Of a stretch of DNA of 64,000 nucleotides, positions 10,596 to 12,051 are shown in pieces. The position numbers and the translations under genes were made by a program. The notes below the pieces were generated by a model. The model ran no database searches. It was not told the DNA's origin and saw nothing but the letters and a program-made list of their open reading frames with translations. How positions within the stretch are numbered: position 1 is the stretch's first letter; every line of letters begins with the position of its first letter. Origin of the DNA: Escherichia coli (GTDB lineage Bacteria; Pseudomonadota; Gammaproteobacteria; Enterobacterales; Enterobacteriaceae); NCBI RefSeq assembly GCF_003334315.1, contig NZ_QOWR01000007.1; one strand, written 5' to 3'.

Positions 10596-10633
10596 TGTGA
10601 TGGTGACAAACGTATAATTGCCAGAGGCGCTTC

Positions 10634-10719
10634 GCTTATCAGGCCTACATAAGGCATTGCAACTGATTGAATGCTTGAGAATTTGTAGGCCGGATAAGGC
10701 GTTTACGCCGCATCCGGCA
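10634..10719. repeat. REP/BIME palindromic elements
   Basis: GCTTATCAGGCCTACA and GTAGGCCGGATAAGGCGTTTACGCCGCATCCGGCA are classic REP units (GCCGGATG / CATCCGGC palindromes). Confidence 0.6.
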
Positions 10720-10787
10720 TGACCAACGATCACGTTATCAGTCATTTCAGGCTGGATGGCTCCAGCCTCGCATTAGCAAAGATGAGA

Positions 10788-11657
10788 TTATTTCGCCTGT
10801 GGTGCAGTTTTGCTGGTGGATTGAACACGTAAGTGATGCAGCGCGCGTAAGCATTGATCCTGGGTTAGCGGTTGGGCGTTATTCGCCGCTACGGTGCGAA
10901 CATAGACCTGACATGGCACACCCGCGAGTTTTTTCAGTCGTGGGCTGAAATCAAGCATTCGGCGAGTGATCGCCTCTATTTCTTTACCCGGCGTTGCTTC
11001 ACGCGTTTTCACCACTGCGCCGCTAAATTGTTCTTTGCCACTTTCATCTTTAAAGCGGTAAAGCACCGCCAGATAATGGTCGAACAGGTTATGTTTCCAT
11101 TCCGGTTGGGAATAGGTGTCATATTCCAGATTGCCATTTTCCTGGCAGTCAACGTCATATAACGGCAGGAAATCTAACAGTGAGGTAATACGTAATGCCA
11201 GCTCACGCATTTCCGCATTATTAATTGCATGAATGATTGCTCGCGCCAGCATTTCAATCTGCAACTCATTGACGACTAACTCACATTTGCTACCGTCATG
11301 TAGCGTTAATACGAAGGTAAGATTTTCGCCTTGATTATCGGTAAGTTCCAGCGTGTTAACCCGACGATTAATATCGGCATTTTTAAGCTCATCAACCAGA
11401 ATTTCTGGGATGTTTTCTGCCATTTTCTTAATGACTTTATCGCGAGCTTGCTCATACTGAAGGCGTGCAGCAGCATCCAGTTTATGCTTTTGATGCAGAC
11501 GACTTTCCAGCGCAATCAGCAGGTCGCGCAGTTCCATGACAGACATAAAGAACAACGATTCTTTATTGCGAGGTTCTTTAATTTTCAGCGCCAGTGCAAT
11601 GAAATTATTACTCTTGCGAATAACACCGGTATTAACACCCTTGATGCTTATGGCCAT
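10788..11657 (-). CDS. yjeJ: Uncharacterized protein YjeJ (289 aa)
   Basis: Full-length ORF (MAISIKGVNTGVIRKSNNFIALALKIKEP...); AT-rich gene with AT-rich upstream region, bracketed by REP elements. Confidence 0.85.
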   Translation of the reverse strand: MAISIKGVNTGVIRKSNNFIALALKIKEPRNKESLFFMSVMELRDLLIALESRLHQKHKLDAAARLQYEQARDKVIKKMAENIPEILVDELKNADINRRVNTLELTDNQGENLTFVLTLHDGSKCELVVNELQIEMLARAIIHAINNAEMRELALRITSLLDFLPLYDVDCQENGNLEYDTYSQPEWKHNLFDHYLAVLYRFKDESGKEQFSGAVVKTREATPGKEIEAITRRMLDFSPRLKKLAGVPCQVYVRTVAANNAQPLTQDQCLRALHHLRVQSTSKTAPQAK

Positions 11658-11920
11658 GTAGGTTCTCCCTAACCATTTCTCAATTAAATAATTAATTTTA
11701 ATTTATAAGCCAGATAAATGGGCTTGGTAGTAATAGTTGTTAAAATAACATAAATAGCCGTGCTCACTCTATATAAACAGAAAAGAAAGGTTAATTATTG
11801 GTGTTAGCTATATAAAAAGTAACAACAGCAATGCATATGAATAATTAAAGGTTATGCAACGGGCAAAGATTAAACTTCCCAGTTTAATGACAGGTTGCTG
11901 TACTTGCGTTTGTTGCTCTT

Positions 11921-12020
11921 GCCGGATGCGGCGTAAACGCCTTATCCGGCCTACAGTTCATTGCAAATCCATTCAATTTCAATGCACGATGTAGGCCTGA
12001 TAAGCGTAGCGCATCAGGCA
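11921..12020. repeat. REP/BIME palindromic elements
   Basis: GCCGGATGCGGCGTAAACGCCTTATCCGGCCTACA and GATGTAGGCCTGATAAGCGTAGCGCATCAGGCA, inverted REP units. Confidence 0.6.
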
Positions 12021-12051
12021 ATTTTAATGTTTGACTTCCCTGTTTAATCAG

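Follow-up and report, generated by a model that had tools for sequence, protein, structure and literature searches.

The 64,000-nucleotide stretch of DNA that was analyzed (the window; contig NZ_QOWR01000007.1) is the Escherichia coli chromosome around groSL-yjeI-yjeJ-epmB-efp, and the gene in question is yjeJ, which a preliminary description of this DNA had taken for an old horizontally acquired, probably H-NS-silenced insert boxed in by repetitive extragenic palindromic (REP) elements. Our analysis suggests that yjeJ is probably an ancient, expressed gene that represents the stand-alone branch of its family, the other chromosomal members being part of microcin-type export operons. The REP-free core of the yjeJ region is 99.4% identical to that of MG1655. 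A Pfam scan of YjeJ returned PF15922 (YjeJ-like), a family without an assigned function, as the sole match, with residues 1 to 283 aligned to positions 1 to 283 of the 283-position model (E = 1.3e-174), and NCBIfam, PADLOC, and PHROGs gave nothing informative for YjeJ. The flanking genes are constant: yjeI is the convergent neighbor of yjeJ in all related loci, including those of Klebsiella, Entomohabitans, and Scandinavium, and epmB is its upstream neighbor throughout the stand-alone yjeJ clade. Coordinates of all features are collected in Table 1.

The REP-free yjeJ core is present in every complete E. coli genome searched (5426/5426), almost always once per genome. A scan of one genome per species, with a closer 8-sequence YjeJ alignment as the query, returned 45 loci; a few obvious contaminants aside, they belong to Escherichia, Citrobacter, Pseudocitrobacter, Kluyvera, Superficieibacter, Salmonella, Trabulsiella, Intestinirhabdus, Yokenella, Kosakonia, Phytobacter, and Pluralibacter. 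All 44 loci whose flanks could be read, from ~14 genera, share one gene order, blc-sugE-efp-epmB-yjeJ-yjeI-groEL-yjeH, which is also that of Atlantibacter and a Scandinavium-like genome. Identity to E. coli across the loci is 40 to 75% for YjeJ, compared with 83 to 93% for EpmB and 92 to 99% for GroEL (one contaminant contig aside), indicating that YjeJ evolves several times faster than its neighbors. The dS of yjeJ is ~1.7 to 2 times that of the neighbors, and its dN/dS of 0.05 to 0.14 is similar to theirs, meaning that yjeJ is a functional gene and not a decaying relic. An intact 285-amino-acid copy is also found on a Salmonella fragment. The patchy presence or synteny break expected of a horizontally acquired, H-NS-silenced island is not seen in these genomes. 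Of the two properties that would speak against an insert, neighbor-like composition and conserved synteny, the locus lacks the first, as described below, and has the second across Enterobacteriaceae but not across all Enterobacterales, since in Proteus efp-epmB lies near neither groEL nor yjeJ.

A few records place yjeJ outside the enterobacteria. Among the scanned loci these are Bacillus coahuilensis (L002, 99% identical to E. coli), a Bacteroidales metagenome-assembled genome (L016, 98%), and Chryseobacterium sp. (L044), and in AFDB they are entries A0A077ZBR0 and A0A0C2JF96, labeled Trichuris trichiura and Thelohanellus kitauei. All of them almost certainly reflect enterobacterial assembly contamination.

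YjeJ relatives in microcin-type export operons

Where do the other members of the YjeJ family reside? An exhaustive profile search yielded no more than 104 cluster representatives. Many of these are fragments, and the full-length members go down to 21% identity; named members come from Klebsiella, Raoultella, Entomohabitans, Scandinavium, Atlantibacter, Budvicia, and Serratia plasmids. In the following, YjeJ' stands for the divergent YjeJ relatives, PCAT for the C39-peptidase ABC exporter, and MFP for the membrane-fusion protein. Ten chromosomal contexts were compared: Budvicia (L047), three metagenome contigs (L048, L052, and L055), Entomohabitans (L053), Klebsiella pneumoniae (L056 and L062), Raoultella (L058), Scandinavium (L067), and Klebsiella grimontii (L070). 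In 10 of 10, a Peptidase_C39 ABC transporter of ~705 to 717 amino acids is encoded directly upstream of YjeJ' on the same strand, and the 12 to 30 nt between the two genes always hold a Shine-Dalgarno sequence. An HlyD-type MFP (~430 amino acids) precedes the PCAT in 7 of the 10 loci, with a cut upstream open reading frame (ORF) at this place in L055, and one to three small ORFs come before the MFP gene in the 7 loci that reach far enough upstream. The K. pneumoniae PCAT gene resembles mchF, the gene of the microcin H47 exporter, in the ATPase region. Wherever the contig is long enough, a chaperone-usher fimbrial operon adjoins the module.

Most of the small ORFs encode mutually homologous, glycine-rich peptides of 108 to 122 amino acids. 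Such peptides with double-glycine leaders occur in all of the loci reaching upstream (L047, L052, L053, L056, L058, L067, and L070); the leaders follow the pattern M[KR][EQ]L[ST]V.EM..[IV][AS]G[GA], with MKQLTVFEMEAISGG and MKELTVFEMEEIAGG as examples, and the peptides share a C-terminal GWD...DG.F.PW motif. Truncated copies are found in Entomohabitans, and K. grimontii has one unrelated peptide of 78 amino acids. The peptide genes lie directly upstream of MFP-PCAT except for the L062 copy, which is elsewhere in the locus, and all of them are near a chaperone-usher fimbrial operon. The family has no significant Pfam or NCBIfam match; an 86-amino-acid copy from Entomohabitans has a weak precomputed match to Bacteriocin_IIc. 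The peptide sequence strings are absent from two microcin-survey supplements and from the full-text literature that was searched.

The operons of the yjeJ relatives share the MFP, the mchF-like PCAT, and double-glycine precursors with class II microcin clusters that use CvaA/CvaB-type export, such as those of MccV, MccH47 (mchE/mchF), and MccPDI. The described clusters contain no YjeJ-like third gene and carry a small membrane immunity gene beside the toxin (PMC12219008), whereas the yjeJ'-type operons have a soluble protein of ~285 amino acids after the exporter. In the two loci whose small ORFs were listed, those of K. pneumoniae and Entomohabitans, the peptide genes have no canonical small transmembrane immunity ORF next to them, so that YjeJ' is the one conserved gene there that lacks an assignment. 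The combination of precursor, MFP, and C39 exporter that marks a microcin export cluster does not occur in the window; its components are found only in the loci of relatives.

Several of these operons occupy the position that yjeJ has in E. coli. In five loci (K. pneumoniae, K. grimontii, Entomohabitans, Scandinavium, and metagenome contig L055), yjeI comes after YjeJ', and groEL-groES-yjeH comes next, as in E. coli, in K. pneumoniae, K. grimontii, and Entomohabitans, where the sequence is long enough. In K. pneumoniae strain 176, efp-epmB is found on the other side of the island. A fimbrial and microcin-export island separates epmB and yjeJ in Klebsiella and Scandinavium, and Scandinavium L067 has both kinds of gene in tandem, in the order epmB-wHTH-fimbriae-peptide-MFP-PCAT-YjeJ'-GerE-YjeJ-yjeI; a genome related to it has epmB-yjeJ-yjeI only. 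In a midpoint-rooted neighbor-joining tree, the stand-alone yjeJ genes, including that of E. coli, form one bipartition in 59 of 60 bootstraps, with the operon-linked and plasmid genes outside. The modules have a GC content of 39 to 48%, compared with 43 to 54% for the rest of each locus, and the core genes from groEL to dsbD in K. pneumoniae L056 have 57%.

The proteins themselves have 274 to 294 amino acids, and none has a transmembrane segment, the maximum hydropathy over 19 residues being ~1 to 2. Operon-linked and plasmid members are acidic, with pI values of 5.0 to 6.1; the stand-alone clade is mostly basic, with 28 of 33 proteins at pI 7.7 to 9.5 and five at 5.9 to 6.7. Stand-alone copies are also carried by Serratia plasmids of 18 to 57 kb, where no double-glycine-leader peptides were found in the region upstream of yjeJ. 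A 163-amino-acid family member corresponding to the N-terminal half is encoded on the E. coli plasmid pLAU-OXA4 (L061, 8001-8492) and on similar plasmids of ~30 kb, directly after parA (AAA ATPase) and parG and adjoining a RelE/HTH toxin-antitoxin pair.

Base composition, expression, and flanking repeats

Windowing bore out the earlier impression that yjeJ and its upstream region are AT rich. The coding sequence has a GC content of 45.4% and a GC3 of 45.2%, compared with a mean GC content of 51.8% for the window, and ranks third lowest of 58 long ORFs in GC and also third lowest in GC3, where only 46890-47291 and 62864-63313 are lower. Among 870-bp windows it stands at z = -1.75, and because 7% of these windows are equally low, the deviation is real but modest. 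GC content is 41 to 44% over the 5' two-thirds of the gene and 53% at the 3' end. The upstream region (11658-11920), at 31.2% GC, falls in the lowest 0.13% of 263-bp windows, and only three other spots in the 64 kb are comparably AT rich (46717-47291, 56305-56499, and 29400-29455; 263-bp windows at ≤36% GC). The ORF at 46890-47291, with 38.3% GC and 41% GC3, is below yjeJ. The low GC content of the yjeJ locus is an old trait: in 42 of 44 orthologous loci, the GC content of yjeJ is below that of the locus, and most of the loci have an epmB-yjeJ spacer with ~29 to 38% GC.

Is the gene silent? Proteomics quantified YjeJ in LB cultures of MG1655 (PMC9508795), so the lack of expression in standard culture that would characterize an H-NS-silenced island is not observed, although the AT richness of such an island is present. 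Genomic SELEX (systematic evolution of ligands by exponential enrichment) with RpoD holoenzyme in vitro assigned the yjeJ/epmB spacer a constitutive sigma-70 promoter of sequence TTAACC-17-TAGAGT (PMC3946193); we took the hexamers from Table 2 of that paper and placed them in the window by reading the sequence. A simple consensus scan for promoters and terminators missed this promoter and returned no more sites than it did in shuffled sequences. The same spacer carries no HNS mark in a table that overlays 987 H-NS sites from genomic SELEX in vitro (PMC3946193), and the supplement of one H-NS chromatin immunoprecipitation (ChIP) paper has no yjeJ entry. Silencing as proposed in the preliminary description is unsupported. 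The AT-rich 5' region of yjeJ is nearly invariant across E. coli lineages and largely conserved in an alignment with Escherichia albertii, and a search of positions 10400-12200 against Rfam found no riboswitch or small RNA in the leader, only subthreshold naRNA4 matches derived from the REPs. A separate genomic SELEX study, in its section on constitutive promoters for the heat shock sigma factor, lists a binding peak inside yjeJ with an intensity of 4.9; the site is classed as type D, with yjeI and yjeK as the convergent genes on its two sides (PMC5493296).

REP clusters do flank yjeJ, and the coordinates given for them earlier were right to within ~15 nt. Each is a bacterial interspersed mosaic element (BIME) of ~115 nt with one Y-type and one Z-type REP, and both are extragenic, in the yjeI/yjeJ spacer (10596-10787) and the yjeJ/epmB spacer (11658-12051). 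The Y and Z patterns have three matches each in the 64 kb, with zero expected from shuffles, and a third Y-plus-Z BIME of the same build lies at 45910-46007. The two BIMEs beside yjeJ form an inverted repeat whose arms measure 60 nt (82% identity) and 44 nt (95% identity). Like other members of the BIME class, they are extragenic and combine one Y- and one Z-type REP in opposite orientation, and nothing else about them is unusual. The right copy has a clear 17-nt target duplication and is polymorphic in presence among lineages. A query that includes the REPs finds 16 to 64 matching places per E. coli genome, and about one-third of complete E. coli genomes cover less than 80% of it.

Both elements vary among strains. 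CFT073 has no BIME on either side of yjeJ (spacers of 49 and 234 bp), O157:H7 has the left one only, and E. albertii has the left one with a 13-nt deletion and lacks the right one. In the alignment, the right BIME is part of a 160-bp insertion (~11891-12050) missing from O157, CFT073, and E. albertii. The insertion is bounded by a 17-nt direct repeat whose two copies are identical at 15 of 17 positions, with weaker similarity running ~15 nt further, and the repeat is present as a single copy in the same three genomes. The right BIME therefore looks like a clean REP/BIME insertion with target duplication that is polymorphic among E. coli lineages. Since CFT073 lacks both BIMEs and O157 and E. 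albertii lack the right one, the two elements do not delimit yjeJ and are not the borders of an island, as had been supposed; their variability marks them as later, lineage-specific additions to the spacers. In a study of evolution under amoxicillin, five independent ampC amplicons start in the yjeJ/epmB spacer, and one starts in the yjeI/yjeJ spacer (PMC12625342). The BIMEs beside yjeJ could plausibly serve as substrates for recombination.

Table 1. Coordinates of yjeJ, its surroundings, and the peptide genes in loci of relatives (positions refer to the window unless a locus is named)
Feature	Position	Strand	Description
yjeI	10242-10595	plus	DUF4156 lipoprotein gene; ORF list, RefSeq annotation, synteny in 44 loci and relatives
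Left BIME	10613-10727		Z-like REP 10620-10648 and Y-type REP 10685-10718; convergent yjeI/yjeJ spacer
yjeJ	10788-11657	minus	CDS, 289 amino acids; PF15922 YjeJ-like; soluble; pI 8.25; ORF list and Pfam
AT-rich 5' region of yjeJ	11658-11873	minus	Leader of ~100 nt and promoter; ~31% GC
Published sigma-70 promoter of yjeJ	11766-11794	minus	-35, complement of 11794-11789; -10, complement of 11771-11766
17-nt direct repeat, copy 1	11874-11890		ACTTCCCAGTTTAATGA; left edge of the 160-bp BIME insertion
Right BIME	11912-12026		Y-type REP 11921-11954 and Z-type REP 11991-12019; yjeJ/epmB spacer
17-nt direct repeat, copy 2	12034-12050		ACTTCCCTGTTTAATCA; abuts the epmB stop codon
epmB	12052-13080	minus	EF-P beta-lysylation enzyme; ORF list, RefSeq annotation
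Peptide genes	L056 4692-5492		
Peptide genes	L053 2789-4362		
Peptide genes	L047 2118-2480		
Peptide genes	L052 4119-4487		
Peptide genes	L058 5181-5522		
Peptide genes	L067 6122-6484		
Peptide genes	L070 6053-6379		
Peptide genes	L062 23065-23427		

Origin and possible roles of the YjeJ family

The history that we favor for yjeJ would run as follows. The gene would have been inherited vertically in the slot between epmB and yjeI since before the enterobacterial genera split. The home of the family would be the 3' end of class II microcin-type operons composed of peptide gene(s), an MFP gene, a PCAT gene, and YjeJ' as the third gene, which sit beside fimbrial genes and occupy the same epmB/yjeI slot in Klebsiella, Entomohabitans, and Scandinavium. 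In the E. coli lineage, the slot would have kept only the yjeJ paralogue, with an AT-rich sigma-70 promoter of its own. Its low GC content would be a retained trait of a family of AT-rich accessory modules and not the sign of a recent arrival, and the two BIMEs would be later, strain-variable insertions into the spacers.

Several observations weigh against this account. Searches of the window and the 45 stand-alone loci by tblastn (E ≤ 1) with Klebsiella, Entomohabitans, Budvicia, and Raoultella components found no PCAT, MFP, or peptide relics, and the Klebsiella MFP-PCAT-yjeJ' module is absent by blastn from the 5426 E. coli genomes, where only the ATPase part of mchF shows ~68% similarity. 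The idea of a remnant thus draws on the shared position and the tree only. Any choice of ancestral arrangement, module-linked or stand-alone, is tentative, and should the root lie between the stand-alone and operon-linked groups, the tree would be silent on this point. The shift from acidic to basic pI suggests a changed function after separation from the exporter. In Salmonella, the yjeJ ORF of S. diarizonae stops at 97 amino acids and S. arizonae gives only a partial match, implying that the gene is dispensable in some lineages; several short Salmonella entries, most without a fragment label, are found in AFDB. In addition, a delta-yjeJ::bla allele has served as a neutral linked marker, and no phenotype was noted for it (PMC10679819). 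As for a link to immunity, class II microcin immunity proteins with verified function are small membrane proteins whose genes adjoin that of the toxin (PMC12219008). The canonical features (≤216 amino acids, transmembrane helices, a position beside the microcin) are not those of YjeJ, which has 280 to 290 amino acids and no transmembrane segment and is encoded three genes from the toxin.

What could the YjeJ proteins do? Tentatively, they may be soluble cytoplasmic partners of microcins, acting in immunity-like protection or in handling the precursor before export. The fixed operon position, the lack of a canonical immunity gene in two loci, the tandem and orphan copies, and the plasmid copies favor protection or precursor handling, and the E. 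coli protein could have been kept because it is still protective or because it was co-opted from such a role. Orphan immunity or protective genes left behind after loss of a toxin module are known for bacteriocin, contact-dependent inhibition (CDI)/Rhs, and type VI secretion system (T6SS) loci. The stand-alone yjeJ at the 3' side of a slot that elsewhere holds the full module, the tandem copies of Scandinavium, and the copies on plasmids resemble such genes, as does fast divergence between genera combined with purifying selection within lineages; the acidic-to-basic shift sets yjeJ apart from them. A bolder version, that the family is a new class of soluble, cytoplasmic immunity-type proteins for undescribed glycine-rich class II microcins of 108 to 122 amino acids exported by MFP-PCAT systems in Klebsiella and relatives, with core-genome orphan copies shielding E. 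coli, Citrobacter, Salmonella, and further genera from the microcins of their neighbors, is rather doubtful; if it were true, a y-gene would determine competition between enterobacterial genera in the gut.

It is improbable that yjeJ and its AT-rich leader form an old horizontal cassette, bordered by the REP/BIME elements and silenced by H-NS. Such a cassette would account for the promoter region, at 31% GC and in the lowest 0.13%, for the coding sequence at 45%, and for the occurrence of the family in mobile contexts, and H-NS is known to prefer AT-rich curved DNA (PMC3946193). However, yjeJ is core in E. coli, syntenic in ~14 genera, and under purifying selection, the protein is detected, the spacer is unflagged among the SELEX H-NS sites, and the supposed borders are missing in CFT073, with the right one also missing in O157 and E. 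albertii. What stands of the earlier claim is that an ultimate horizontal origin is plausible, because the family occurs in AT-rich accessory modules at several chromosomal sites and on plasmids; an insertion on the timescale of E. coli is not supported. AT-rich promoters and flanking REPs can thus accompany an ancient, selected core gene, and the pattern alone is no proof of a silent foreign insert. The opposite simplification, that the PCAT linkage reflects hitch-hiking in a single family of islands and that yjeJ is an ordinary gene, expressed poorly, whose low GC content stems from weak codon selection, has little chance of being right. All operon-linked cases may indeed descend from one fimbria-carrying island type, and a synonymous divergence 1.7 to 2 times that of the neighbors is what low codon bias would produce, but the linkage has survived at three chromosomal locations and in at least two families (Budviciaceae and Enterobacteriaceae), PCAT and yjeJ' remain 12 to 30 nt apart although YjeJ' diverges to ~20 to 30% identity, and this spacing is kept even where the fimbrial operon of Raoultella is inverted.

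Two further proposals concern biochemical function. It is very unlikely that YjeJ' is simply a cytoplasmic chaperone or adaptor that hands the hydrophobic, glycine-rich precursor to the PCAT, with the E. coli copy a co-opted or fading relic. The place of yjeJ' directly after the exporter, the short gaps with Shine-Dalgarno sequences, the soluble, acidic nature of the operon-linked proteins, and the truncated or short Salmonella versions would fit this proposal, but a pure export helper would hardly remain under strong selection in 5426 E. coli genomes and ~14 genera that have no exporter. Unlikely, too, is the proposal that YjeJ is a nucleic acid-binding protein of the PUR/Whirly type, a regulator or a nucleoid or plasmid factor, whose operon and parA-parG locations would reflect regulation or DNA handling. 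A confident AlphaFold2 model built from a 26-sequence alignment (pLDDT of 93.2, pTM of 0.88) has three modules of a beta-sheet plus a helix, and PURA entries had the highest Foldseek probabilities (0.44 to 0.69), none of them significant. Against the PDB, Foldseek gave no match at E = 0.001, with TM-scores of 0.37 to 0.42 on the target, and a profile of the family had no match at E ≤ 10 among all PDB sequences. By this search and the Pfam scan, YjeJ has no sequence-profile relation to the PurA or Whirly families or, more widely, to the Pur-alpha/Whirly/PC4-type proteins with beta-beta-beta-beta-alpha repeats, and the acidic pI of the operon-linked and plasmid members would be unusual for nucleic acid binders. 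The modeled resemblance to Pur-alpha is weak, and we treat a PUR-like fold as a lead and not as an assignment. In AFDB, proteins of Klebsiella, Raoultella, and Leclercia share the YjeJ fold (TM-scores of 0.8 to 0.9), and weak matches of ~280 amino acids occur in Pseudomonas.

The gene, its Pfam family, and the REPs were known. Neither the association with microcin-type export operons nor the family of peptides was found in the searchable literature or in the two survey supplements, and the searchable literature does not mention the PF15922 family and treats yjeJ only as a neutral marker site or a table entry. For yjeJ, which is among the K-12 genes without an assigned function, the operon position in relatives provides a concrete hypothesis that is inexpensive to test. 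It also points to an unlabeled family of double-glycine peptides, and neither of the two loci examined shows an obvious immunity gene for them.

Other insertions in the yjeJ slot

Two gaps next to yjeJ, of 2.1 kb in Kosakonia and Phytobacter and of 2.0 kb in Citrobacter youngae, were considered as exporter remnants and rejected. The former holds a methyl-accepting chemotaxis (chemoreceptor) gene between yjeJ and yjeI, and the latter holds an unrelated ORF of 572 amino acids between epmB and yjeJ; C. youngae also has a reverse transcriptase of the group II intron type between yjeI and groEL. These insertions, at 6060-7778 and 9648-11438 in L011 and at 8968-10686 in L035, show that the slot attracts other elements as well. 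Within E. coli, IS1 is found in or beside yjeJ in at least two complete genomes, BL12 (H1/H31) and YJ6 (H40), and in BL12 it splits the annotation into two YjeJ pieces.

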